Origin: Vulcanimicrobiota bacterium | GTDB lineage: Bacteria > Vulcanimicrobiota > Vulcanimicrobiia > Vulcanimicrobiales > Vulcanimicrobiaceae | NCBI GenBank assembly: GCA_963771525.1 | Contig: CAVYTL010000001.1 | Location: 202,457 to 266,456, forward strand | DNA: 64,000 nt | Reading direction: 5' to 3' | Shown: in pieces, positions 2,181 through 16,496 of the stretch | Layout: each line of letters opens with the position of its first letter | Numbering within the stretch: position 1 is the stretch's first letter | The notes under the pieces: generated by a model | Told to the model about the DNA's origin: nothing | Database searches by the model: none | The model's input: the letters and a program-made list of their open reading frames with translations, nothing else | Position numbers and translations under genes: made by a program

Positions 2181-2208
2181 TAAATCCCCCCGGAAGGGCG
2201 TCCGATAG
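2181..2208 (+). promoter_or_regulatory. sigma28 (FliA/SigD)-type promoter
   Basis: TAAA(2181-2184)-N16-TCCGATAG(2201-2208) matches TAAA-N15/16-GCCGATAW and lies directly upstream of flaG-fliD-fliS. Confidence 0.8.
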
Positions 2209-2234
2209 TCGAGATGAGGAGGGTTTCGACGAAC

Positions 2235-2576
2235 ATGGACGTTCATTCGATCGACGCGACGCTGCCCGCGAGCAGCGCAGCCGCGTCGTCTGTCGGCACG
2301 CTGCAGGCATTTCCGGCGAGCGCGGACTCGCCGAAGACGGCGGCGGCGCCGCCGCATGCGGACGACGGCACGCTGCACGAGGCGCTCTCTCAACTCGTGG
2401 GTGGCGGGTCGAAGGTGTCGGTTCAGTACAAGGTCATCGAGCCCAACGAGATCGTCACGGTGTTCACCAACGCCGAGACCGGTCAGGTCATCACGCAGTT
2501 TCCGTCCGAGGCGATGGTGCAGATCGCGCAGTTCTTCAACAAGCTCGCCGGCGCCGTCGTCGATCGGACCGCATAG
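2235..2576 (+). CDS. flaG: FlaG-family flagellar protein
   Basis: GAGGAGG RBS before ATG 2235; C-terminal V..NAETGQVITQFPSE...GAVVDRTA FlaG pattern; precedes fliD. Confidence 0.75.
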   Translation: MDVHSIDATLPASSAAASSVGTLQAFPASADSPKTAAAPPHADDGTLHEALSQLVGGGSKVSVQYKVIEPNEIVTVFTNAETGQVITQFPSEAMVQIAQFFNKLAGAVVDRTA

Positions 2577-2579
2577 CAC

Positions 2580-4625
2580 GTGAGCGGCATCGGTTCGGCC
2601 CAGACCTCGTCGAGCTCGGGATCGAGCGGAAGCAACGTGCAGTACGGCACGAACGTTCCGCCGATCTCGTTCCCGGGCATCGCGTCCGGCATCGACTACA
2701 ACTCGATCATCGACAAGTACACCTCGCTGACGCTGGCGCAGGAGACGCCGCTTCAGAATCAGGTCACCTCGCTGAACGCGCAGCAGGCCGAGCTGCTCAA
2801 GATCCAAGACCTGCTCGCGAAGTACCAGGACACGTTCCAGGCGATCAGCGATCCGTCGAACTTCAACGCGACGACGCCGACGTCGTCGAACGGCACGGCG
2901 ATCGCCGCAGCGTCCGAGTCGGGAGTCGTCGCGACGCCGGGCAGCTACGTCATCGATCAGGCCAGCCTCGCGACGGCGACCCAGTTCACGAACGACCCGG
3001 CGGCGAACGGCGCGTTCAGTCAGACGGCGACGCTGGTGAACGCGGGCGCCTCGATCACGCCGAGCAACGGTTCGGCAACGACGGGCCTGATCACGATCAA
3101 CGGCCTGCAGCTCTCGTACGACGTCAACTCGACGACGCTCCAGAGCTTCATCACGACGAACGCCGCCGCGCTTTCGTCCGTCGGCGTGACGATGACCTAC
3201 AACGCCGCGACGCAGCAGGTGACGGTCTCTTCGACGCGCCCGCTCACGCTCGGCTCTGCGAGCGACAGCGGAAACCTGCTGTCCGTGCTCAAGCTCGATA
3301 CGGCGCAAATCACGCAGGGCGGCGGCACCTACACCGCGACCAGCACGTCGGCGATCGGCGGCATCAACGTCGGCGCGGTGTTCGATACGGGCCAGAACGC
3401 CGGCTTCGCGACCGCCGTCACGAGCGGCGAGTTCTCGATCAACGGGGTCGCATTCAAGGTCGACAGCACGACGAACAACTTGAACGACGTGCTGCAGGAG
3501 ATCAACGGGTCGTCCGCCGGCGTGATCGCGACCTACGATCAAGCCAACGACCGCATCGTGTTGACCGCGAAGGCCGACGGTCCACAGGGCATCACGCTCG
3601 GCTCCAGCGGCGACACGTCGAACTTTCTTCAGGCTGCCGGCTTTCTGGCGAACGCCACGCAGCCGAACCAGCTCAGCGCCGGCGCGACCGAGCAGGTCGG
3701 CAGCGCGGCGAAGATCGTGTACACGGACGCCGCCGGCACGCAGCACACGGTGTTCAGCAACAGCAACACCGTCACGAACGTGGTCCCGGGCGTCAGCCTG
3801 ACGCTGAAGCAGGCCGTCGACGGCACGACGATCGTGCCGGTCACGATCAGCGTCGCGCAGGACAGCACGGCGCTGCAGACCGCGATCAACAACTGGGTCA
3901 CCGCGTACAACGCGGTGATCGACGAGATCAACACCGCCACCCAAGCGCCCGTCGTCGGAACGTCGACGAACTCGTCGACCGGACAAACGACCGGGACGCA
4001 GCTGACCGGCGGCGGCGTGCTGTTCAACAACCAAGAAGTGATGGACATCAAGGACCAACTGGTCAGCTTGGTGTCGGGCTACTTGAACACGGGCTCGTCG
4101 TCGTACAATTCCCTCTCCTCGATCGGCCTCTCGCTCGACAACTCGTTCACGCAAGGCCAGGCGACGTCCGACGACAGCTCCGACACCGCGTCGCAGACGT
4201 CGGTCCAGCAGCAGCAGTTCGACGGCACCAGCGGCCGGCTGCAGGGGCTGGACGTCTCGGCGCTGACGAGCGCGCTCGCCGCGGACCCGAACGCCGTCTC
4301 CGCGCTGTTCACCGGTCAGAGCAGCGTCGTCACGCAGATGGGCGCATACCTGACCACGGTCGCCGGGCTGCCGACGCAGCTCACGAACGGAATCGCGGGG
4401 ACGATTCCGACGCAGTCGCTGCTCGCGACGCTGCAGTCGGAGAACCAAGACGAGATCAGCTCGCTGCAGCAGCAGATCACGCTCGTTACCAATCAGGCCA
4501 ACATGCAAGCGGACCAGCTGCGCCAAGAGTTCACCAACAGCGAGACGCAGATCGCGCAACTGCAGGCGATGCAGGGCTCGCTCGGCGCGCTCGGCATCAC
4601 GACGTCGAGCTCCTCTAGCGGATGA
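2580..4625 (+). CDS. fliD: Flagellar filament cap protein FliD (HAP2)
   Basis: N-terminal GIASGID motif, VVPGVSLTLK, WVTAYNAVID, LSSIGLS, C-terminal coiled coil; between flaG and fliS. Confidence 0.93.
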   Translation: MSGIGSAQTSSSSGSSGSNVQYGTNVPPISFPGIASGIDYNSIIDKYTSLTLAQETPLQNQVTSLNAQQAELLKIQDLLAKYQDTFQAISDPSNFNATTPTSSNGTAIAAASESGVVATPGSYVIDQASLATATQFTNDPAANGAFSQTATLVNAGASITPSNGSATTGLITINGLQLSYDVNSTTLQSFITTNAAALSSVGVTMTYNAATQQVTVSSTRPLTLGSASDSGNLLSVLKLDTAQITQGGGTYTATSTSAIGGINVGAVFDTGQNAGFATAVTSGEFSINGVAFKVDSTTNNLNDVLQEINGSSAGVIATYDQANDRIVLTAKADGPQGITLGSSGDTSNFLQAAGFLANATQPNQLSAGATEQVGSAAKIVYTDAAGTQHTVFSNSNTVTNVVPGVSLTLKQAVDGTTIVPVTISVAQDSTALQTAINNWVTAYNAVIDEINTATQAPVVGTSTNSSTGQTTGTQLTGGGVLFNNQEVMDIKDQLVSLVSGYLNTGSSSYNSLSSIGLSLDNSFTQGQATSDDSSDTASQTSVQQQQFDGTSGRLQGLDVSALTSALAADPNAVSALFTGQSSVVTQMGAYLTTVAGLPTQLTNGIAGTIPTQSLLATLQSENQDEISSLQQQITLVTNQANMQADQLRQEFTNSETQIAQLQAMQGSLGALGITTSSSSSG

Positions 4626-5047
4626 CCGTCACCGGCGCGAACCTGCGCTACCTCGAAGCCTCCATCACGTCCGCGAGCCCCGAGGAGCTGATCATCCGCG
4701 TCTACGACGCGCTGCTGCTCTTCGCGCGCCAGGCGATCGACGTCATGGAGAACCGTCCCGCCGACATCCAGTCGCGCCACGACCTGCTGCGCCGCGCGCA
4801 GCGCGCGTGCGCGCTGCTGATGGGATCGCTGAAGCTCGACATCGACAGCGAAATCCCCGGCAACCTGTTCCGCATCTACGAGTTCTGGCACCACCAGCTG
4901 GTCGCTGCGAACATGCACGGCGACCCGCAGAAGGTTCGCGACCTGCTGCCGCTGATCGCCGGCATGCGCGAGACCTGGGTCGAGGCGATCAAGCGGTATC
5001 GGGCACTCGGAGTGCCCGGCGCCGAGTTCAGTGCCGTCGTCTGCTGA
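4622..5047 (+). CDS. fliS: Flagellin export chaperone FliS
   Basis: YLEASITSASPEELIIRVYD, NLFRIYEF, L..MRETW motifs; ATGA-coupled to fliD. Confidence 0.92.
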   Translation: MTVTGANLRYLEASITSASPEELIIRVYDALLLFARQAIDVMENRPADIQSRHDLLRRAQRACALLMGSLKLDIDSEIPGNLFRIYEFWHHQLVAANMHGDPQKVRDLLPLIAGMRETWVEAIKRYRALGVPGAEFSAVVC

Positions 5048-5420: not shown

Positions 5421-6194
5421 TCACCTCGCCGCGAAGAGGAGCGTCGTCTCGAACGGTTCGTGACGCTCGCCCGCCCGCGCGACGGCCTCGTCGAACGCAA
5501 CCAGCGCCGTGCGCTCGCCGCGTAGCACGATCATGCGCAGCCGGTTCGTCTCCGCGTCGTCTTCCCACCGGGCCGGCGCCGTCGCACCCGACGCGCGGTC
5601 GTAATGCGCGGCCCGCACCCCCGCGTGCAGCAGCACGCGCGCGCCGCTCGCGCGCAGCCGCTCGCAGAGCAGATAGTCTTCGTCGCACTGCCGCACGACG
5701 CGCGCGGCGGGATCGACGTAGAGGTGCGCGGCGAAGTACGGGCGCGTCAGCGCGCGCAGCGCGCTCACGCGCAGCACCACGCAGCCGAAGCCGACGCCGT
5801 CGACCTCGCTGACGGCGCCGGCGGTGAACGCCGGAATCGCGGCGCTCGTCGTGTCGCCGGAGTTCCAGCGCGCGACCGCCATCGGTCGCGCGGAGTCGCG
5901 GCTGTAATACAGCGCGCCGGCGATGGCGGCGGAAGGCTGCGCTTCCAGCGCCGCGACGAGCAGTTCGAGGGCGTCGGCCGGCGCGACGATGTCGTCGTCG
6001 ATCATCGCGAGCAGGTCGAATCCGCGGTCGAGCGCGTCGCGCACGATCATCTCGCGCTGCGCGGGCACGAAGTTGCCGCTCCACACGAGCCGGTCCGCTT
6101 CGCCGACGCTCGCGGGCAGGCGCAGCGCGGCAAGGGCGTCGAGAAACGGCCGCGCGGGCGACCCGCCCGTCGGGACGCCGATCAGGAGCTTCAC
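5421..6194 (-). CDS. GT-A fold glycosyltransferase (family 2-like)
   Basis: GTG 6194 overlaps upstream stop; LLIGVPT, MIDDDIV (DxD), VDGVGFGCVVL, EDYLLCERL. Confidence 0.8.
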   Translation of the reverse strand: MKLLIGVPTGGSPARPFLDALAALRLPASVGEADRLVWSGNFVPAQREMIVRDALDRGFDLLAMIDDDIVAPADALELLVAALEAQPSAAIAGALYYSRDSARPMAVARWNSGDTTSAAIPAFTAGAVSEVDGVGFGCVVLRVSALRALTRPYFAAHLYVDPAARVVRQCDEDYLLCERLRASGARVLLHAGVRAAHYDRASGATAPARWEDDAETNRLRMIVLRGERTALVAFDEAVARAGERHEPFETTLLFAAR

Positions 6195-7924
6195 CGAACG
6201 GCTTCGCGCAGCGCGGCGACGAGCGCGCGGCCCGCCTCGTGGAGCGTCGGATCGTCGGCCGTCAGCGGATCGTAGCCGCGGTCGACGGCGCGCCGGACGG
6301 TCACGCGCATCAGCCACGCGCCTGCGGCGACGCGGTACGCGGCGAGCGCGTCGCGCACGACGGCGGTCGCCTCGTACGGCGCCCCGTCGACGGCGCGCGG
6401 CGCGACGGCGAGCAGTACCTGCGCGCCGCGCAGGAACGGATCGGGCAGATTGCGCGCGAGCAGGTTGCGCAGCGCTTCGAGGTCGCGCGCGTCGAAGCGC
6501 GCGACGAGCAGCGCGCCTTCGTACGGGATCTCTTCGTGCGCGGCAGTCGCCCCGGGCGCGATCAGCGCGAGCGTCTCCGCCGTCACGACCGGCGGCGTCG
6601 GCCGGTTCATCCGCGCCGCGACGAGTGCACGCGGCAGCGCCGCCGCGACGGATCGCGCGAAGGCGGAGACGCCGAGTGCGCGCCCGAGCGGGCCGTCCGC
6701 CGCGGCGATCGACGACAGGAGCGCGAGCGCCGCGAGACCGTGGGGCACGGCGCCGATGAAGACGCGCTCGAGCGCACGGACCTCGTCCGCGTCGAGCACG
6801 CGCGCGAGCACGGCCGGCTCGGGCGGGGCGAGGGGCTCCGCCGCCGGCTCGGGCTCGGGCGCGACCTCCGCCGCTTCGGCCTCGCCTTCATGCGACGCGG
6901 CCGCGGCGAGGTGTTCCGCGGCTTGCGGCTCGCCCGCGAGCTCCGGCTCGGGCCCCCGCTCCGGCTGCGGCGGGCTCGGTTCGAGCTCGGCCTCAGGCGC
7001 CGCCTCGAGCTCGTCCTCGGCTTCCGCTGCGGCCGGCTCCGGCTCGGGGACGGGCTTCTGCGGCGGCTCGGGCTCGCGCGCTGCCGGCTCCGGCTCCGGC
7101 GCCGCTCGAGGAGGCTCGGGAGCCGGCTGCGGCGCGATGAGGTGCGCCGGGAGCTTGAAGCTGGGGGGTGCGGCCAGCACGGGCCATTCCGCGGTATCCG
7201 GCTCGAGCGCAGCGGCCGCCCGCGCGACCTCGGGCTCGGGCAGCGCCGGCTCGCCGACGACGACGTCGACGGCGTGCACCGGTTCCGCGGCCGCCGCCGC
7301 GTCGTCGTCCGCCGACTCTCCGGCTTCGAGCTCGAAGAACGGCCGGGGTGCGTCGAATGCGGCGTGCCCTTCGCGGCGCGTGAGCCGCAGCGCGGGCCCG
7401 CTCACGGCCGGCACGCCGGGCGAGGCCGCATGCGCCGACACGTCGAGCGCCTCCGTGCCCGGTTGCACGCGGATGGTGAACCGCAGGCGCACGAAGCTCG
7501 CCGCGGGGATCGTGCCGATGCGCAGGCCTTCGGCCAGGAGCGCGTCGCCGTCGACGGCGACGTCGTCGCGCGTGAAGGAGCCGGCGATCGGATCGGCGCC
7601 GGGCGGTACCGAGACGCGCACGGTGACGTCGTCGGCGTCGGTGTCCCCGTCGTCCGCGATCTCGACGACGACCGTGACGACGGCACCGGGGATCAGCCCG
7701 TGGTTCGGTCGCGCATCGACGACGAGCCGCAGCATGGCGCCGCGCGGCGTGGCGAGCGGCACGCCGTCGCCGAGCATCGACTCGGGGCCGAAGCGCGCCG
7801 GCATCGCCGACGGCGGGCTCACCGGGGGCGCGAGGCCGAGCTCTTCACGACGGCGGCGTTCGAGAAGCCGCGTGTCCGCGTTGCGGTCGAACAGCTCGTC
7901 GAGGTCGACCTCGCGCGGCGTCAT
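6191..7924 (-). CDS. Hypothetical protein: DUF11/Ig-like domain, Pro/Glu-rich linker, helical C-terminal domain
   Basis: ATG 7924 coupled to the ATPase stop; PGAVVTVVVEIADDGDTDADDVTVRVSVPPG resembles DUF11; PEPEP low-complexity tract at about 6830-7330. Confidence 0.7.
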   Translation of the reverse strand: MTPREVDLDELFDRNADTRLLERRRREELGLAPPVSPPSAMPARFGPESMLGDGVPLATPRGAMLRLVVDARPNHGLIPGAVVTVVVEIADDGDTDADDVTVRVSVPPGADPIAGSFTRDDVAVDGDALLAEGLRIGTIPAASFVRLRFTIRVQPGTEALDVSAHAASPGVPAVSGPALRLTRREGHAAFDAPRPFFELEAGESADDDAAAAAEPVHAVDVVVGEPALPEPEVARAAAALEPDTAEWPVLAAPPSFKLPAHLIAPQPAPEPPRAAPEPEPAAREPEPPQKPVPEPEPAAAEAEDELEAAPEAELEPSPPQPERGPEPELAGEPQAAEHLAAAASHEGEAEAAEVAPEPEPAAEPLAPPEPAVLARVLDADEVRALERVFIGAVPHGLAALALLSSIAAADGPLGRALGVSAFARSVAAALPRALVAARMNRPTPPVVTAETLALIAPGATAAHEEIPYEGALLVARFDARDLEALRNLLARNLPDPFLRGAQVLLAVAPRAVDGAPYEATAVVRDALAAYRVAAGAWLMRVTVRRAVDRGYDPLTADDPTLHEAGRALVAALREAVR

Positions 7925-8886
7925 CGCAGGCGGAAGGCCTCCAGCCAGGGCAGCCACCAGCTCCGCGCGCGTGCCGCGGCGGCGGGTGCGGCCGGTTCCG
8001 CGACGGCGCCGTTCGTCGCCGCGACGCTCTGCGGCAAGCCGGCCGCGGCGGCCGGCGCCGGCGTTACGGCGAGACCGCGAATGCGCGCGGCGGCTTCCGC
8101 GTCGGTGCGCGTCGCGCGCGGCCGGCTGAACGCGGCCGCCTCGCGCAGCGTCGCGTGCGCCAGCGTGAGGAGCCGCCGGGGCGTGCCGCCGGCGGCGCAC
8201 GCGATCGCATCGAGCACCTCGTCGTCGAACACCGCCGTGAGCTGCACGTCGCCCGCGCGCGCGATGCGGTATGCGATCAGCGCGCGCGCTTCGTTGTCGT
8301 CGAGTGGGCCGAGCTCGTACCATTCGTCGACACGGTCCGCGAGGTTGCGGCGCGCCTCGACGCGCGGCCGCAATTCGCTCTGGCCGAACAGCACGATGTT
8401 GAGGAGCTTGCGCTGCGGCACGTCGTAGTTCAGCAGCAGGCGCAGCACCTCGAAGATGTCGTCGCTCGCGTTCTGCGCTTCGTCGACCAGGAGCGCGATC
8501 GTGAGGCCGTCGAGCACCGCGGCGTCGTACAGGTAGTTCTTCAGCGCGTTCTTCAACGCGGCCGGCGAGCGCGGGGGAAGCGCGAGGCCGAACGAGCGCG
8601 CGACGCCGAGCAGGAACTCCGTCTCGGTTGCGAACGACGGGTCGAGGATCTTGCCGAGGCGCACGTCGTCGCGTCCGAGCAGCTCGCGCTCGGTCTGCGC
8701 CATCAGGCTCGTCTTTCCGGTGCCGGGCTCGCCGACGACGATCTGCAGCCCGCGCGACTCGAGCACGCCGCCGACGAGGCGGTCGCGAGCGCGCGCGAGG
8801 GCCGGCGTCGTCCGGTAGAAGTGCGGATCCGCAGTGTCGAGGAACGGATCGCGCTCCAACCCGAAGTGCCGGTAATACGGGGTCAT
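7921..8886 (-). CDS. ExeA/GspA-family AAA ATPase
   Basis: YYRHFGLERDPF N-terminus, Walker A GEPGTGKT, Walker B LLVDEAQ, IVLFGQSEL, GTPRRL. Confidence 0.9.
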   Translation of the reverse strand: MTPYYRHFGLERDPFLDTADPHFYRTTPALARARDRLVGGVLESRGLQIVVGEPGTGKTSLMAQTERELLGRDDVRLGKILDPSFATETEFLLGVARSFGLALPPRSPAALKNALKNYLYDAAVLDGLTIALLVDEAQNASDDIFEVLRLLLNYDVPQRKLLNIVLFGQSELRPRVEARRNLADRVDEWYELGPLDDNEARALIAYRIARAGDVQLTAVFDDEVLDAIACAAGGTPRRLLTLAHATLREAAAFSRPRATRTDAEAAARIRGLAVTPAPAAAAGLPQSVAATNGAVAEPAAPAAAARARSWWLPWLEAFRLR

Positions 8887-8942: not shown

Positions 8943-8969
8943 TCGGGAAGCGGCCCGGTCTGCCGATAT
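8943..8969 (+). promoter_or_regulatory. Possible sigma28-type promoter for rfbF
   Basis: Exact GCCGATAT -10 at 8962-8969; -35 is poor (TCGG at 15-nt spacing). Confidence 0.4.
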
Positions 8970-9009
8970 GTAACAGGATGCACAGTGTCCCCGCGCGGTG
9001 GGGCGCCCG

Positions 9010-9783
9010 GTGAAGGCCGTCATCCTCGCCGGCGGCCTCGGCACGCGGATCAGCGAGGAGACCACGACGCGCCCGAAGCCGATGATCGAGATCGGCGGGC
9101 GCCCGGTGCTCTGGCACATCATGAAGACGTACTCCGCGCACGGCATCAACGATTTCGTCGTGTGCTGCGGCTACAAGAGCTACGTCGTGAAAGAATACTT
9201 CGCGAACTACGCGCTGCACGCGTCCGACGTGACGTTCGACATGCGCGACCGCTCGATGCGCGTGCACAACTCCGCGGTCGAGCCATGGTGCGTGACGCTG
9301 GTCGACACCGGCGACGAGACGATGACGGGCGGCCGTCTGCGCCGCGTGCGCGACTACCTGGACGGCGAGCAGACGTTCTGCTTCACGTACGGCGACGGTC
9401 TCTCCGACGTCGACGTGCGCGCTTCGATCGCGCACCATCAGTCGTCCGGCGCGATCGCGACGATGACGACGGTGCAGCCCCCGGGCCGCTTCGGTGCGGT
9501 GCGGCTCGAAGAGGCGAAGATCGTCGCGTTCGACGAGAAGCCGCAGGGTGACGGCGCCTGGATCAACGGCGGGTACTTCGTGCTCTCGCCCGGCGTGTTC
9601 GACTACCTCGCCGGCGACGACACCATCTGGGAACGGGACCCGCTGGAACGTCTCGCCGCCGGCGGCAAGCTCTCGGCTTTCGTGCACCGCGGCTTCTGGC
9701 ATCCGATGGACACGCTGCGGGACAAGACGCTGCTGGAGGATCTGTGGTCGAGCGGGCGGGCGCCCTGGAAGGTCTGGGCGTGA
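9010..9783 (+). CDS. rfbF: Glucose-1-phosphate cytidylyltransferase
   Basis: [55 protein letters not shown]. Confidence 0.96.
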
Positions 9784-11594
9784 ACGACGCCGCGCACGCG
9801 CCGCTGATCTCGGTGCTGATCCCGAACTACAACTACGCCAAGTACGTCGGCGCGGCCGTCGAGAGCGCGTTGGCGCAGACGTATCCGAACGTCGAGGTCG
9901 TCGTCTCCGACAACTGCTCGACCGACGGCGCGTGGGAGCTGCTGAACGAGCGCTTCGGCGAGCATCCGCGCGTGCGGCTGAACCGGAACGCGACGAACAT
10001 CGGGATGGCGCGCAACTTCGACCGGCTCCTGGAGCTCGCGCGCGGCGAGTTCGTGCTATGCCTCTCGTCCGACGACTTTCTGCTGCCTCCGCATCTCGAG
10101 CGCCTCGCGGAAGGCTTCCGCCGCGACCCCGCGCTCGACGTCGTGTGGTGCAACGCGTACTTCGCGCGCGAGGACGGCACCGTGTACGCCACGCGCGCGC
10201 TCCCCGGGGAGTTCCCGGTGTCGTACAGCGACGCGCGCGACGAGCTCGTCGAGAACTTCACGACCGTCTGTCCCGTCTGCTTTCCGTGCGCGCTCTTCAA
10301 GCGCGCGACGCTGCTCGAGCCCGGGATGTGCGGCGATCCGGTCAACGGCCAGGATGCGCGCGACTGGGAAGTGATCATCCGGCTCGCGCTCGCCGGCAAG
10401 CGGTTCGCCTACATCGCGCAGCCGAGCATGGCGATCCGGCTGCACGGCGATCAGTTCAGCGGCGACCTGTACCACCGGACCGGCCGCAACGTGATCGACT
10501 TCGCCTCCTACGTCGAGCGCTACATGGACCATCCCGGGTTCGTGCGACGCATGCGCGGGCACGAGGCGTACGTCGCGCGGTTTCTACGCTCGCTCGTCGC
10601 GGGCGCGGTGCATCGCAACGCGGGAGTATCGCCGTTCGACGCCGCGCAGGACGCGTGGTTCGCGGCGCTCGCCGCACGCCTCGATGCGCGCGGCGCCGCC
10701 TACGAGCCAGCCCGCGTGCGCGAGTCGAAGATCAGCGTCGTGATGCAGACCGCGGGCTCCCCGCGCCCGCTGCTCGACGCGCTCGATTCGCTCCGCGCGC
10801 AGACGTTCGCGAACTGGGAGGCCGTCATCGTCGATCACGGCCGGATCGACTGCGAGGCCCTGCTACGCGCGCACCCGGCCTGGCCGCGCACGTCGTACGT
10901 GCGGCTTCCGGCGCCGGTAACCGTCGGCGCCGCGCGCAACCTCGCCCTGCGCATGGCACGGGGCGAGTATCTCGCATTCCTCGATCCGGACAATCGCTTC
11001 GCGCCGGAGCACCTGCAGTCGGCCGTCGATGCGATCGTGCGCTCGGGCGCGGTGGCGACGTTCGCCGGTTCGCGCCTCGTCGTCGAACGCACGGATGCCG
11101 TCGCGCTCTCGCCGGAGCGCATCGGCGACGCGCCCTACGGCGGCGGCGAGCCGGATCTCGCGCGGCTGACCGTCGCGCACGCGATCCCGCTCGACGCCTT
11201 CGTCATCTATCGCGGCGCGCTCGCGCGCACGGGCACGTTCAACGCGAGCGTTCCGTCGCTGGACGATTGGGACTTCGCCATGAACCTCGCGCGCGCCGTG
11301 CGCTGCGTCCCGACGGGCGACATCACGCTCGACGTCGTCGCGCGCCTCGACCTCGCCGCGCAGCGGCTCGCGGCATCCTATCCGTCGTATCTCGTCGTGC
11401 TCGATGCGCTCTATGCGGCGCATCCGGTCGACGCCGCGCTCGCGGACGCGCGCGCCGGCCATCGCGCCGCGGTCGCCGAGGCGCTCGGCGCGGCAGGCGA
11501 CTGGGTGCGCGAACCGCGCGGGCTCGTCGCGTTCATGCACGCGCTCGCCGGCCGCGCCGGCGCGGCGCCGTTGCGCCTCGCTCAGCCCGCGTAA
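9780..11594 (+). CDS. Glycosyltransferase with two tandem family 2 domains
   Basis: [21 protein letters not shown], then [26 protein letters not shown]; GTGA-coupled to rfbF. Confidence 0.9.
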
Positions 11595-12631
11595 GCGTTC
11601 AGGTCGCGCTCGACGAGGCCCTCGACGTCCTCGCCGGCGAGGAAGTCGCGATACCATGCGGCCGTTGCGTCGACCGCGCGCGGCGCGTCCCATTGCGGCG
11701 CCCAGCCGAGCTCGGCCCGCGCGCGCGACGAGTCGACGGCGAGGACCGCCGTCTCGTGCTCCGGCGCCGGTTCGACGCGAATCGCGTCGAACGGGTTCGC
11801 GCCGAGCGCGCGCACGAAGCGCTCCGCGACGTCGCGCACGCGCAGCGCCGCATCGGGCCCGAAGTTGTAGGCGGATGACGGCGCGCGGTTCGCCGCGAGC
11901 GCGCGCGCGAGCGTGACGTAGCCGTGCAGCGGGTCGAGCACGTGCTGCCACGGGCGGATCGCGTCGGGGCGGCGCAGCACGAGCGGCGCGCGCGACGCGA
12001 ACGCGCGGAACGCGTCCGGCACGAGCCGGTCGGGCGCGAAGTCGCCTCCGCCGATCACGTTGCCGGCGCGGGCGGTCGCGACGCGCGGCGCATCGGCCGA
12101 TGCGAAGTACGCGGCGCGGTAGGTCTCGACGACGAGCTCGGCCGCGGCCTTGCTGCCCGCGTACGGGTCCGCGCCGCCGAGCCGGTCGTTCTCGCCGTAG
12201 CCCGCGTCGCGCGGACGGTCCGCGTAGACCTTGTCGCTCGTCACGACCACGACGTTCTCGACGGACGCGGTGCGGCGGACCGCTTCGAGGAGATGGACCG
12301 TCCCCATCACGTTCGTCGCGTACGTTTCGACGGGCTCGGCGTAGCCGCGCCGCACGAGCGCCTGCGCGGCGAGATGGAACACCGTCGCCGGACGAGCGGC
12401 GGAGAGGGCGGCTGCGAGCGCGCCGGCCTCGCGCACGTCGACCATGCGCTGGTCGACGTGCCGTGCGTACGGAGCCGCTGCCCAGAGGCTCGGCTGCGTG
12501 TCGGGCGGCAGCGCGACGCCCGCGACGCGCGCGCCGAGCCGCAGCAGCAGCGCGCAGAGCCACGTGCCCTTGAAGCCCGTATGCCCCGTGACCAGGACCC
12601 GGCGCCCGCGCCAGAAACCGGCGTCAGCCAT
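11582..12631 (-). CDS. rfbG: CDP-glucose 4,6-dehydratase
   Basis: FWRGRRVLVTGHTGFKGTWL, HLAAQALVR, TSDKVY, DPYAGSK, RAGNVIGGGD, RPWQHVLDPL. Confidence 0.96.
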   Translation of the reverse strand: MADAGFWRGRRVLVTGHTGFKGTWLCALLLRLGARVAGVALPPDTQPSLWAAAPYARHVDQRMVDVREAGALAAALSAARPATVFHLAAQALVRRGYAEPVETYATNVMGTVHLLEAVRRTASVENVVVVTSDKVYADRPRDAGYGENDRLGGADPYAGSKAAAELVVETYRAAYFASADAPRVATARAGNVIGGGDFAPDRLVPDAFRAFASRAPLVLRRPDAIRPWQHVLDPLHGYVTLARALAANRAPSSAYNFGPDAALRVRDVAERFVRALGANPFDAIRVEPAPEHETAVLAVDSSRARAELGWAPQWDAPRAVDATAAWYRDFLAGEDVEGLVERDLNAYAG

Positions 12632-13175
12632 GGACGTCACGGCGACCGGTCTCGAGGGCGTGCGGCACATCCGGCTTGCGCCCGCGCGCGACGCGCGCGG
12701 CTGGTTCGCGCGCACCTTCGACGCCGCCGCATTCGGCGCGCAGGGTCTCGTCACGTCGTGGCCGCTGCACGCGGAGGCGTGGAACGAACGTGCGGGCACG
12801 ATCCGCGGCCTGCACTTGCAGCGCCCGCCGTACGCCGAGGTGAAGATCATTCGCTGCACGCGCGGCACGGTGTACGACGTGCTGCTGGACGTCCGGCGCG
12901 GGTCGCGCACGTTCGGGCGCTGGGAGGCCTTCGAGCTGCGCGCGGACGACGCGGTCGCGCTCTACGCGCCGGCCGGGATCGCGCACGGCTACCAGTCGCT
13001 CACCGACGACGCGACGCTGCATTATCTGATCTCGGAACCGTACGCGCCCGACGCGGCGATCGGATACCGGTACGACTCGCCGGCGCTCGGCATCCCGTGG
13101 CCGCTGCCGCCGGGAATCATCTCCGAGCGCGACCGCGCGCTGCCGCGCTTCGATCCGTCACGCGTCGATGCGTAG
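12630..13175 (+). CDS. rfbC: NDP-4-keto-6-deoxyhexose 3,5-epimerase (RmlC/RfbC family)
   Basis: DARGWFAR, GTIRGLHLQ, KIIRCTRG.VYDVLLDVR, GIAHGYQSL, LGIPWP..ISERD. Confidence 0.93.
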   Translation: MDVTATGLEGVRHIRLAPARDARGWFARTFDAAAFGAQGLVTSWPLHAEAWNERAGTIRGLHLQRPPYAEVKIIRCTRGTVYDVLLDVRRGSRTFGRWEAFELRADDAVALYAPAGIAHGYQSLTDDATLHYLISEPYAPDAAIGYRYDSPALGIPWPLPPGIISERDRALPRFDPSRVDA

Positions 13176-14504
13176 CTCGGGGATCGCGAGCACGAAGCGC
13201 CCGCCCCAGCCGCGCACGTCGTCGAGCTCGGAGCGGATCTCCGCTTCGACGTTCCAGGGGAAGATCACGACGTAGTCCGGGTGCTCTTCGCGGATTCGCT
13301 CCGGGGCGACGATCGGAATGCGCACGCCCGGGATGAGGTGCTGCTGCTTGTGCGGGCTCTTGTCGGCCACGTACGGCAGCAGGTCGGCGCGCACGCCGGC
13401 GTAGTTCAGGAGCGTCGTCGCCTTGGCCGCGGCGCCGTAGCCGGCGACGCGCATCCCGCGGTGCTTCGCGTCGATCAGGAACGCGACGAAGTCGTCCTTG
13501 ATGCGCGCGACGCGCTCGCCGAACGCGGCGTACGTCGCCGGATCGTGCAAGCCGGCGGCGCGCTCGGCGGCGGCGATGCGCGCGACGCTCGCGTCGGCGG
13601 CGCGCGAGCCGCGCGGCGCGACGAACACCCGCAGCGACCCGCCGTGCGTCGGTAGCTCCGCGATCTCGACGATCTCGAGGCCGTGGCGCGCGAACAGCGG
13701 TGCCAGCGCGATCGTCGAGAGGTACGAGAAATGCTCGTGGTAGATCGTGTCGAACTGCGTGCCGGCGACCGTGCGCAGCAGGTGCGGAAACTCGAATGTC
13801 GCCATGCCGTCGGCCGCCAGCAGCTCGGCGAAGCCGCCGACGAAGTCGTTCAGGTCCGGAACGTGCGCGAGCACGTTGTTGGCGACGATCAGGTGGGCCG
13901 CGCCGGACTGCGCGCGAACGCGCTTCGCGAGCGCGACGCCGAAGAACTCGTCGATCGTCGGAACCCCGGCCGCGCGCGCGACCGCCGCGACGTTGCTCGC
14001 CGGCTCGATCCCGAGCGCGTCGACGCCGCGCGCGACGAACCCGCGCAGCAGGTAGCCGTCGTTGCTCGCGACCTCGACGACACGCGAGCCGGGTCCGATG
14101 CCCCGCCGCGTCATCTCCTCGACGTAGGCCTCGGCGTGCGCGAGCCACGTCGTCGAGTATGACGAGAAATAGCGGTAGTCGCGGAAGAGCTCGTCCGGCG
14201 CCGCGAAGACGTCGAGCTGCACGAGGCTGCAGCGCGCGCAGACGTGCGCGTGCAGCGGGTAGAGCATCTCGCCGGAAACCACGGCGCTCGGCGGCGTCAG
14301 GGCGTTCGACGGCGGCGAGAGCCCCAAGTCGACGACGCTGCGCAGATCGGCGCAGCCGCACGCGCGGCACACGAACGCCTCGCTCTGGTCATCCTGAGCT
14401 CGTCGAAGGGCCTGAGCTCGTCGAAGGGCCGTGTCATCCTGGGTCGCTCGCACGGAGGTGTCGTCATCCTGAGCTCGTCGAAGGGGCGAGAACCACGCCA
14501 TCAT
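13158..14504 (-). CDS. NDP-sugar C-methyltransferase (Zn-binding N-terminus, class I SAM domain)
   Basis: CRAC..VDLG..PPSN, C..CSLVQL, VEVASNDGYLL, FDTIYHEHFSY, HGGSLR, GYGAAAK; start is ATG 14504/14501 or GTG 14372. Confidence 0.92.
   Translation of the reverse strand: MMAWFSPLRRAQDDDTSVRATQDDTALRRAQALRRAQDDQSEAFVCRACGCADLRSVVDLGLSPPSNALTPPSAVVSGEMLYPLHAHVCARCSLVQLDVFAAPDELFRDYRYFSSYSTTWLAHAEAYVEEMTRRGIGPGSRVVEVASNDGYLLRGFVARGVDALGIEPASNVAAVARAAGVPTIDEFFGVALAKRVRAQSGAAHLIVANNVLAHVPDLNDFVGGFAELLAADGMATFEFPHLLRTVAGTQFDTIYHEHFSYLSTIALAPLFARHGLEIVEIAELPTHGGSLRVFVAPRGSRAADASVARIAAAERAAGLHDPATYAAFGERVARIKDDFVAFLIDAKHRGMRVAGYGAAAKATTLLNYAGVRADLLPYVADKSPHKQQHLIPGVRIPIVAPERIREEHPDYVVIFPWNVEAEIRSELDDVRGWGGRFVLAIPELRIDA
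14388..14485. repeat. Cluster of GTCATCCTGAGCTCGTCGAAGGG repeats (2 full, 2 partial)
   Basis: Full copies 14388-14410 and 14463-14485, partial copies 14411-14428 and 14433-14441; translated as LRRAQDD in the methyltransferase frame. Confidence 0.92.
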
Positions 14505-14508
14505 GCGG

Positions 14509-15675
14509 TTACGCGAAGAACGAGCGCACGCCGTCGATCACGCGCTCGATCGACCGCTCCGCCATCAGCGAGTGCAGCGGCAGCGTCATGACCTCGTCGA
14601 CGACGCGCTCCGTCACCGGCATCGGCGAACGCCGTGCGGAGGCGAAGTACGTGTGCCGGTGCACGGGGACGAAGTGGATGCCGACGTCGACCCCGCGCGC
14701 GCCCAGGTGCGCGATCAGCGCCTCGCGCGCGCCGGCCGGCACGCGCAGACTGTAGATGAAGGGCGAGACGTCCGCATAGTCGCGACGAAGCACGCGGACG
14801 TCCGGTAGCTCGTCGAACGCCGCGGAGTACCGCGTGCACACCGCGCGGCGGCCGGCGATGAACTCGTCGACGCGCTTGATCTGCGAGACCCCCACGCTCG
14901 CCATGACGTTGGTGAGGTGGTACCGGAAGCCTTCGGAGACGACGTCGTAGTCCCACGCGCGCTTGTTCTGATAGCGCAGGGTCGTGTCTTTGTCGACGCC
15001 GAGCAGCCGCAGGTGCTGCAGGCGCTCGAACTCCTCGCGGTACGGCGTGACGACGCAGCCGCCGTCGATCGACGTGATGATCTTGACCGGATCGAAGCTG
15101 AAGAACTGGACGTCGCCCGCCGCGCCGACGCGCTCGCCGTCCACCGTGCTGCCGAACGCATGACACGCATCCTCGATGACGCGCAGGCCGCGGCGGCGCG
15201 CGAGCGCGTAGACGTCGCCGATCGCACAGGGGACGCCCGAGAAGTGCAGCGGCACGATCGCCTTCGTGCGCGGGGTGATCAGCGTCTCCGCGCACGCGAC
15301 GTCGATGCCGAGATCGGCCTCGCGGATGTCGCACATGACGACCTCCGCGCCGGTGGCACGGATCGCCTGATGGTCGGCGACGTAGTTGAACGAGGGCGTG
15401 ATCACTTCGTCGCCGGGCCCGATCCCCGCGGCGAGCAGCGCGATGTGCAGCGCCGACGTGCCGGTGTTCGTCGCAACGACGAACCTGTCTTGGAGTCCGA
15501 GATAGCGAGCGATCCGCTCCTCGAAGTCTTTCGTCGTGGCGCCCATGCCGAGCCATCCGACGTCGAGCGCGTCGGTCAGATGCTTGAGCGTATCGACCCC
15601 GATGTACGGGACGAACACGGGCACCCGATCGTCCGACGACGCCGGCGTGACCGGGGCGCGGTCGAGGACGTTCAT
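14509..15675 (-). CDS. DegT/DnrJ/EryC1/StrS PLP-dependent sugar aminotransferase
   Basis: NTGTSALHIAL, GPGDEVI, IEDACHAFG, FSFDPVKIITSIDGG (PLP lysine). Confidence 0.95.
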   Translation of the reverse strand: MNVLDRAPVTPASSDDRVPVFVPYIGVDTLKHLTDALDVGWLGMGATTKDFEERIARYLGLQDRFVVATNTGTSALHIALLAAGIGPGDEVITPSFNYVADHQAIRATGAEVVMCDIREADLGIDVACAETLITPRTKAIVPLHFSGVPCAIGDVYALARRRGLRVIEDACHAFGSTVDGERVGAAGDVQFFSFDPVKIITSIDGGCVVTPYREEFERLQHLRLLGVDKDTTLRYQNKRAWDYDVVSEGFRYHLTNVMASVGVSQIKRVDEFIAGRRAVCTRYSAAFDELPDVRVLRRDYADVSPFIYSLRVPAGAREALIAHLGARGVDVGIHFVPVHRHTYFASARRSPMPVTERVVDEVMTLPLHSLMAERSIERVIDGVRSFFA

Positions 15676-15707
15676 GCTATTGCTGCGGGCCTCCGTTGAC
15701 GATTACT

Positions 15708-15735
15708 GTATCGGTGAGCGATATCGCCGGCTTGA
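15708..15735 (-). promoter_or_regulatory. sigma28-type promoter for the aminotransferase unit
   Basis: Minus strand TCAA(15735-15732)-N16-ACCGATAC(15715-15708), same spacing as the flaG promoter, 32 nt before ATG 15675. Confidence 0.6.
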
Positions 15736-15737
15736 GC

Positions 15738-16496
15738 GTGCCCCGCGGTGAGGCGGCGACGGATCCGCACGATCCGAAAGACGGCGCACTGCTGCGCCGC
15801 ATGGGCGCCGATCCCGAGGTGCGCGCCGCGTGGAAGCGTGCGCTGGACGTGATCGCGCCGTACCGGTACGCCTACAACTGGTCGTGGCTCGGACGTCCGG
15901 CGATTCAGTTTCCGCAAGATCTGATGGCGTTCCAGGAGATCATCTGGCGCACGCGCCCCGATGTCGTCGTCGAGACCGGCATCGCGCACGGCGGCTCGCT
16001 CGTGTTCTCGGCCTCGATGCTGGAACTGCTCGGCGGCGAGCGGGAGGCGATCGGCGTCGACATCGACATCCGCCCGCACAACCGGGCAGCCATCGAGGCG
16101 CACCCGCTCGCGCACCGCATTCGCATGATCGAAGGATCGTCGGTCGATCCGGGCACCGCCGCGCGCGTCCGCGAGCGCGTCGCCGGCCGCACCGCGATGG
16201 TGATCCTCGACTCGAACCACACGGCCGAGCACGTCGCGCGCGAGCTCGACCTCTATGCGCCGCTCGTGCGCCAAGGGCTCTTTCTCGTCGTGATGGACAC
16301 GGCGGTCGAGTACGCGGACGCCGCGGCGATCGTCGACCGCCCGTGGGGTCCCGGCAACAGCCCGATGACGGCCGTCGACGCGTTCCTCGCGCGGGAAACT
16401 CGCTTCGTCATCGACGAGGAGTACGACGCGAAGCTGCTGTTCACGGTCGCGCCGCGCGGCTATCTGCGCGCGCTCGGCGACGCCGACCGCGCGTGA
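15738..16496 (+). CDS. CmcI (cephalosporin hydroxylase)-family methyltransferase
   Basis: YAYNWSWLGRPAIQFPQD, RPDVVVETGIAHGGS, ILDSNHT.EHV, PWGPGNSP; start uncertain (15696, 15714 or 15738). Confidence 0.92.
   Translation: MPRGEAATDPHDPKDGALLRRMGADPEVRAAWKRALDVIAPYRYAYNWSWLGRPAIQFPQDLMAFQEIIWRTRPDVVVETGIAHGGSLVFSASMLELLGGEREAIGVDIDIRPHNRAAIEAHPLAHRIRMIEGSSVDPGTAARVRERVAGRTAMVILDSNHTAEHVARELDLYAPLVRQGLFLVVMDTAVEYADAAAIVDRPWGPGNSPMTAVDAFLARETRFVIDEEYDAKLLFTVAPRGYLRALGDADRA

Follow-up and report, generated by a model that had tools for sequence, protein, structure and literature searches.

How are two genes expressed that stand head-to-head with overlapping start codons, each enclosed by genes of the opposite strand? 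This question is raised by the rfbG and rfbC genes in a sugar gene cluster of a Vulcanimicrobiota bacterium, which belongs to a group of soil bacteria, located in a window of 64,000 nucleotides (nt) of contig CAVYTL010000001.1 (all locus coordinates are positions within this window, unless a contig is named). An original prediction from the sequence of this stretch described the gene order as rfbF (+), a GT2 glycosyltransferase gene (+), rfbG (−), rfbC (+), a C-methyltransferase gene (−) and a DegT aminotransferase gene (−), with 3′ overlaps of 13 bp between GT2 and rfbG and of 18 bp between rfbC and the C-methyltransferase gene, and our data agree with it in all these points (Table 1). It interpreted the locus as two opposing transcripts, each running antisense through one gene to reach its last gene. 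We consider such reciprocal non-contiguous operons, which would have originated when a reversed rfbG was placed ahead of rfbC, the probable arrangement on balance, with read-through that we infer from promoters and gene order.

The Interlocked Layout Is Shared by 13 Species

Synteny in related genomes had been proposed as a check, and rfbG and rfbC meet head-to-head in the same way in 12 further species of this genus, which share 60–75% protein identity, and in three metagenome contigs. In these 13 species co-directional genes are split by a gene of the opposite strand, and this is true on both strands. The rfbC genes of all 13 species form one clade (97/92), as do the rfbG genes of the 13 species together with those of genomes G010 and G020 (100/100); the layout thus arose once. 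It was not found in the other genera sampled from the family. The assumption that these genes are normally co-directional holds for all loci with both genes that were found outside this layout (14/14 genome loci and 9/9 distant metagenome loci). Both rfbG and rfbC are intact and under purifying selection, with uncorrected pN/pS values (non-synonymous to synonymous) of 0.44–0.50.

The GT2/rfbG junction carries an insert in G042 (L044:6971-9427), made up of an AbiEii-like toxin gene, a small partner and AT-rich DNA, and another in G018 (L031:9298-9744), with an unknown 148-aa gene.

Predicted Sigma28 Promoters at Both Ends

The inward-facing sigma28-like elements that had been noted at 8962 (+) and 15735-15708 (−) are both conserved. 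The −10 element upstream of rfbF is present in 11/11 genomes with the native rfbF, and the degT promoter in 11/11 genomes with this degT type. Both are the top matches of conserved-motif scans, with medians over the aligned species of 14 and 15–19. The −35 region of rfbF is variable in relatives, while degT has a −35 of the TAAA/TCAA type at a spacing of 15–16 nt, which is kept by a rare Leu codon in cmcI in 10/10 genomes. A CCGATA-type −10 also precedes flaG and, in variant form, fliC and flgM, and FliA is encoded (TIGR02479, 255 bits, cut-off 190). Based on motif and phylogenetic footprint we predict both end promoters to be sigma28 (FliA) promoters.

In eight relatives rfbF itself begins 7–9 nt after the −10 element (leaderless type). 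Short upstream open reading frames (ORFs) equivalent to the one in Table 1 were recognized by eye in G021 and G016; their sequences and lengths (9–11 codons) differ. At the other end, the degT promoter lies over the cmcI start and a candidate extended −10 for cmcI lies at the degT start, so that the two promoters stand face to face.

Gene Order in Relatives and a Possible Order of Events

In the sister genus (G203/G155) the equivalent island position holds a sigma28-type GT2 operon that ends in rfbC, 7–15 bp behind the preceding gene. There is an overlap of 17 bp between this rfbC and the methyltransferase gene of the degT operon, and rfbG is absent between the two. The tail-to-tail junction of rfbC and the methyltransferase gene therefore exists without rfbG, and rfbC is promoter-distal there. 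A single inversion of rfbC was also tried as the origin of the layout and was dropped because of this junction. In G010, rfbG of the type studied here lies 4 bp behind degT, and on contig L149 rfbC of this type lies 14 bp behind GT2, with an ordinary Shine-Dalgarno (SD) sequence. Both can be read as natural derivatives in which the interlocked layout collapsed, joining degT directly to rfbG and GT2 to rfbC. Gene order in relatives assigns rfbC to the rfbF-GT2 unit and rfbG to that of degT.

These arrangements suggest the following order of events. The ancestor would have had two ordinary converging operons, (rfbF)-GT2-rfbC and degT-methyltransferase, which met tail-to-tail with no terminator between them. 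A single event in the ancestor of the 13 species, an inversion or insertion, would then have put rfbG in reverse between GT2 and rfbC. The rfbC gene would have stayed the last gene of the plus-strand transcript, which would now cross about 1.05 kb of anti-rfbG, and the minus-strand transcript would continue past the methyltransferase gene through about 0.52 kb of anti-rfbC and so serve rfbG. Subsequent loss of spacers may have made all junctions overlap, and the ribosome site of rfbG would have landed in the first codons of rfbC.

Two further arrangements were seen in relatives. The complete genome of G020, which has no flagellin gene, carries an orphan rfbG next to rpsB (L037 ~10400) with a relic of the first rfbC codons, and this rfbG is the longest branch of its clade. 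G203 shows an independent case of strand interleaving (L243:10991-14557), in which a reversed dehydratase-like gene stands between rfbF and GT2, 38 bp head-to-head with GT2 and with back-to-back sigma28-like elements.

The Junction of the rfbG and rfbC Starts

The overlapping ATG codons at 12629-12632 that had drawn attention to the locus are present, but an overlap of 2 nt occurs in this genome only. As a conserved feature it was rejected, since the site equivalent to ATG 12631 is a start codon in 0/12 relatives. Their rfbG starts further inside rfbC, by 9 nt in 11/12 and by 6 nt in 1/12. This genome has a GTG (12640-12638) at the 9-nt position, and the ancestral overlap was therefore 11 nt; rfbG may start here at either GTG 12640 or ATG 12631. 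The 2-nt head-to-head overlap is unique among 555 predicted divergent gene pairs of the genome, 2.9% of which have a gap of zero or less (these statistics come from a gene finder made for this analysis, and its start positions are uncertain). Overlaps of convergent genes are ordinary in this genome (26% of convergent pairs).

The view that neither gene has an evident ribosome-binding site applies to rfbC and to rfbG of this genome, but not to the relatives, in which rfbC contains a purine-rich, SD-like site for rfbG. The mean anti-SD energy of this site is −8.1 kcal/mol versus −5.9 kcal/mol in codon shuffles, the species not being independent; the value for this genome, −4.2 kcal/mol, is at the shuffle null. 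In a scan for rare codons, codon 7 of rfbC ranks 6th of 2281 positions. Codons 5 and 8 of rfbG are also among the top ten, beside overlapped stops and the −35 inside cmcI. These two rare codons are unusually conserved and place an A at −4 and −13 of rfbC. The A-rich word ahead of rfbC does not pair with the 16S tail better than the null, and the rfbC start region is weakly folded in most species. Weak use of SD sequences is common in this genome, as are leaderless starts and 4-nt coupling.

Are There Internal Promoters or Terminators?

Scans averaged over the aligned species revealed no conserved promoter inside anti-rfbG and anti-rfbC (best values 4.6–5.3 and ≤4.5). No conserved −10 lies directly ahead of rfbC or rfbG, and leaderless promoters at these positions are not supported. 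The rare-codon scan, which does find known embedded signals such as overlapped stops and the −35 inside cmcI, gave no promoter motif at the rfbG/rfbC junction. Moderate sigma28-like sites (~10) within the methyltransferase gene coincide with conserved residues, and transcripts from them would still have to cross anti-rfbC. There is no terminator-like site at either convergent junction (GT2/rfbG, rfbC/methyltransferase).

Embedded promoters of this genus are visible when present, as the degT promoter over the cmcI start and the −10 at the rapZ/DUF2203 pair demonstrate. The latter pair (L110:4427-5656; C1:587424-588656 of this genome, outside the window) is head-to-head with a gap of 0–3 nt in 30/30 genomes of the genus (29/29 without the unpublished G044; a second unpublished genome, G036, underlies none of the results). 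The −10 of DUF2203 is embedded in rapZ by means of a rare Val codon in all 30, and no conserved −10 for rapZ was seen inside DUF2203. The genes from DUF1858 to rapZ-yvcK are a candidate non-contiguous operon. Other tight head-to-head pairs predicted in this genome, named by eye and with uncertain starts, involve housekeeping-like genes: der (22 bp), serA (19 bp), coaE (21 bp), hisH, ispE and ftsY; the coaE pair carries a two-way −10 palindrome.

The interpretation as opposing units stands in so far as mis-assembly is refuted, the end promoters pass the footprint, no conserved internal promoter was found and the gene order of relatives fits. Several observations weigh against it. A TANNNT or CCGATA motif occurs within 100 nt of just ~30% of the operon-leading genes of this genome, versus 8% of antisense coding controls, and because of this low sensitivity the negative scan for internal promoters is weak. 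In G042 the 2.5-kb insert between GT2 and rfbG holds a plus-strand terminator-like hairpin, and rfbC is intact; the AT-rich part of the insert also supplies −10-like words. A translated antisense bridge across anti-rfbC is not conserved, since the coupling frame is open with a start in 1/11 species; it is open without a start in one more, forms a 4-step relay in one and is interrupted in the remainder. No translated chain across anti-rfbG was found in the five genomes run. Rho acts on long untranslated RNA, and a full-length Rho-like protein is encoded (410 bits, below the cut-off of 509). A C/G ratio of 0.97 in anti-rfbG versus 1.09 in co-directional orthologs is limited to one clade and was not counted as evidence, and rfbC has no C/G shift of the kind expected for avoidance of Rho sites. 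For rfbC no SD above the shuffle null was found. The rfbC genes of G203/G155 are close relatives, yet the tree does not support them as a sister group, which leaves the proposed order of events tentative. Moreover, a deletion of any kind would bring neighbouring genes together as in the two presumed derivatives, one of which, G010, is a mosaic.

Hidden internal promoters for rfbG and rfbC are consequently a serious alternative, to which we assign somewhat less than an even chance. The situation might be asymmetric, with one gene reached by read-through and the other served by its own promoter hidden in the coding sequence of its neighbour, which would leave one ordinary non-contiguous operon. 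The one-sided embedding of the DUF2203 promoter in rapZ is a precedent within the genus, the terminator-bearing insert of G042 would suit an rfbC with its own start, and the conserved rare codons of rfbG put an A at −4 and −13 of rfbC. However, these bases do not fit the sigma70 motif of this genome or its sigma28 motif, and the gene order of relatives links both rfbG and rfbC to distal operons. We regard this possibility as rather unlikely.

An improbable alternative is a weak or unrecognized promoter for each of the two genes inside the other, with the outer operons stopping at the convergent junctions and an overlap in the 5′ regions only, as in a divergent excludon. Such promoters leave a conserved footprint in this genus where they exist, but the 13 species show no footprint at this locus. 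In relatives both genes lie inside operons and lack promoters of their own, so that two promoters would have had to arise, and terminators are missing at the convergent junctions. What speaks for such face-to-face promoters is that most promoters of this genome are unrecognizable by simple motifs, that tight divergent pairs are numerous and the neighbouring degT/cmcI pair is built this way, and that the reversed dehydratase-like gene of G203 has its own sigma28-like site.

A long sigma28 transcript of the plus strand, covering rfbF, anti-rfbG, rfbC and the antisense of the methyltransferase and degT genes and running into cmcI, would extend the reciprocal arrangement rather than replace it, and the overlap would cover most of 6.7 kb. 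The missing terminator-like site after rfbC and the degenerate extended −10 of cmcI in this genome and in G021 are in line with this. Most relatives retain a good extended −10 for cmcI, however, and the moderate sigma28-like words in the methyltransferase gene are forced by conserved residues. We regard this version as improbable. A local mis-assembly or a recent non-functional inversion is refuted by the same junction in 12 other species and three independent metagenome contigs with both genes intact; nothing was found in its favour, and it has virtually no probability left.

Expected Consequences of the Proposed Reciprocal Transcription

If the operons are reciprocal and non-contiguous, the sense/antisense overlap would comprise at least 1594 nt (11582-13175). 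The two facing promoters would depend on one sigma factor, FliA, by which both transcripts would be induced together. An RNase III gene is encoded, with a score over the cut-off. Since RNase III is present and both promoters are under the same sigma factor, damping of RfbG and RfbC is to be expected: collision and cleavage of a duplex of at least 1.6 kb by RNase III would lower these two proteins relative to those of the promoter-proximal genes.

We favour the view that this damping is tolerated in a locked layout rather than selected. Because rfbG and rfbC overlap other genes at either end, the layout is physically locked, and it is missing from two lineages; its persistence therefore does not demonstrate a regulatory role. 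It is doubtful that selection keeps the pair, with co-induced sigma28 transcripts that each have to cross the last gene of the other, both ribosome sites within the duplex, and collision or RNase III setting the dose (or a cell-to-cell alternation) of consecutive enzymes and hence of the flagellar glycan.

Enzymes and Flagellar Setting

Table 1. Coordinates of genes and signals at the locus
Feature	Position	Strand	Remarks
Overlap of the two coding starts	12630-12640	both	11 nt in 12 species, 8 nt in one
SD-like site for rfbG in rfbC codons 6-8	12645-12653	−	strong in several relatives, weak in this genome
Predicted sigma28 −10 of the plus-strand unit	8962-8969	+	top match of conserved-motif scans; −35 poor in this genome
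Predicted sigma28 promoter of the minus-strand unit: TCAA, 16 nt, ACCGATAC	15708-15735	−	straddles cmcI start codon
11-codon upstream ORF	8978-9013	+	begins 8 nt past −10 element; 4-nt overlap with rfbF start
Candidate extended −10 promoter for cmcI	15675-15683	+	next to degT start; final T absent here and in G021
rfbF, glucose-1-phosphate cytidylyltransferase	9010-9783	+	TIGR02623, 445 bits, cut-off 300
Two-domain GT2 glycosyltransferase	9780-11594	+	PF00535, two stretches; 13-bp 3′ overlap with rfbG
rfbG, CDP-glucose 4,6-dehydratase	11582-12640 (to ATG: 11582-12631)	−	TIGR02622, 402 bits, cut-off 278
rfbC, RmlC-family NDP-sugar 3,5-epimerase	12630-13175	+	PF00908, 168 bits; 18-bp 3′ overlap with C-methyltransferase gene
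NDP-sugar C-methyltransferase	13158-14504	−	PF08484, PF08421, PF13489
DegT/DnrJ/EryC1/StrS aminotransferase	14509-15675	−	PF01041, 323 bits
CmcI-like O-methyltransferase	15714-16496	+	PF04989; 38 bp head-to-head with degT
Flagellar context: sigma28 promoter, flaG, fliD, fliS	2181-5047	+	

RfbG exceeds the curated TIGR02622 cut-off, and its GxxGxxG (NAD-binding) and YxxxK motifs are intact. RfbC has its active-site motifs (His/Lys/His/Tyr) and stays below the curated cut-off of the dTDP-specific RmlC equivalog (TIGR01221, 129 versus 156 bits); gene context suggests a substrate linked to cytidine diphosphate (CDP). The C-methyltransferase may start at GTG 14372 or at ATG 14504, with a frame that runs through a repeat array. 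This array (14388-14486), which is similar to repetitive extragenic palindromes, lies between degT and the methyltransferase core and preserves the frame from ATG 14504; G014 and G059 have single related copies at the equivalent place.

The sugar genes are part of a flagellar island between fliD/fliS and rpsB (20882), with genes for flagellin and a GT2-TPR protein immediately upstream of the window and GNAT, WbqC and PhyH genes downstream of cmcI. Sugar and glycosyltransferase genes are thus linked to flagellin and fliD under flagellar-type promoters, as in a flagellin glycosylation island, and in G020, which lacks flagellin, the island is missing except for the orphan rfbG. Flagellin is the probable target of glycosylation, and the enzyme families suggest a C-methylated amino-6-deoxyhexose made on CDP as the product. 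A literature search on this sugar, with incomplete coverage, gave nothing relevant. A minus-strand trio at 5421-8886 (an ExeA-like AAA ATPase, a 577-aa unknown protein and a GT2-like protein) is conserved in the flagellar island across genera; a conserved sigma28-variant −10 lies ~19 nt before the start of the ATPase gene.

Comparison to Known Non-Contiguous Operons

In the non-contiguous operon menE-menC-MW1733-ytkD-MW1731 of Staphylococcus aureus (PMC7154746, PMC11034616), an operon is likewise interrupted by a gene of the opposite strand, with a full-length sense/antisense overlap, which is predicted in our case. In the second men operon, the gene on the antisense strand is menA, which acts in the same pathway (PMC11034616). 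The antisense gene in S. aureus is transcribed from a promoter of its own, and co-transcription, interference and a dependence on RNase III were demonstrated (PMC7154746, PMC11034616). Here, in contrast, the predicted operon of each strand is interrupted by the last gene of the other, the two starts lie within each other, neither gene has a visible promoter of its own, and both predicted end promoters share one sigma factor.

The vfm locus of Dickeya dadantii, one of 83 putative units of this kind in that organism (PMC9239193), resembles our locus in that a long unit contains an antisense gene of the same functional system, and it shows that such units are common, but it is one-sided and not reciprocal. 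In excludons, overlapping transcripts of neighbours lead to mutually exclusive expression (PMC12288877, PMC7154746). One divergent and two convergent overlaps of this type coincide here, but RfbG and RfbC are consecutive enzymes that are both required. Co-directional rfbF-rfbG-C-methyltransferase-rfbC clusters comprise the same four enzyme families, which are here split over both strands. The layout would function like a non-contiguous operon (PMC7154746, PMC11034616, PMC9239193, PMC12288877); it differs from the known form by its reciprocity, the overlapping starts, the lack of a visible own promoter and the shared sigma factor. A limited literature search, which does not prove novelty, found no published reciprocal non-contiguous operon.

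Non-contiguous operons known to date are one-sided, and they have been interpreted as a means to make expression mutually exclusive. If our interpretation is true, the two-sided form, in which consecutive enzymes of one pathway would depend on opposing read-through from promoters of the same sigma factor, would show that a full sense/antisense overlap is compatible with co-expression of consecutive enzymes, and that an internal gene can flip and persist on read-through alone. The natural series of converging operons, interlocked form and two collapsed derivatives makes this idea directly testable. The locus is also a warning that operon prediction from strand and distance fails in this phylum, where the genus has kept at least one other head-to-head pair with zero gap throughout.

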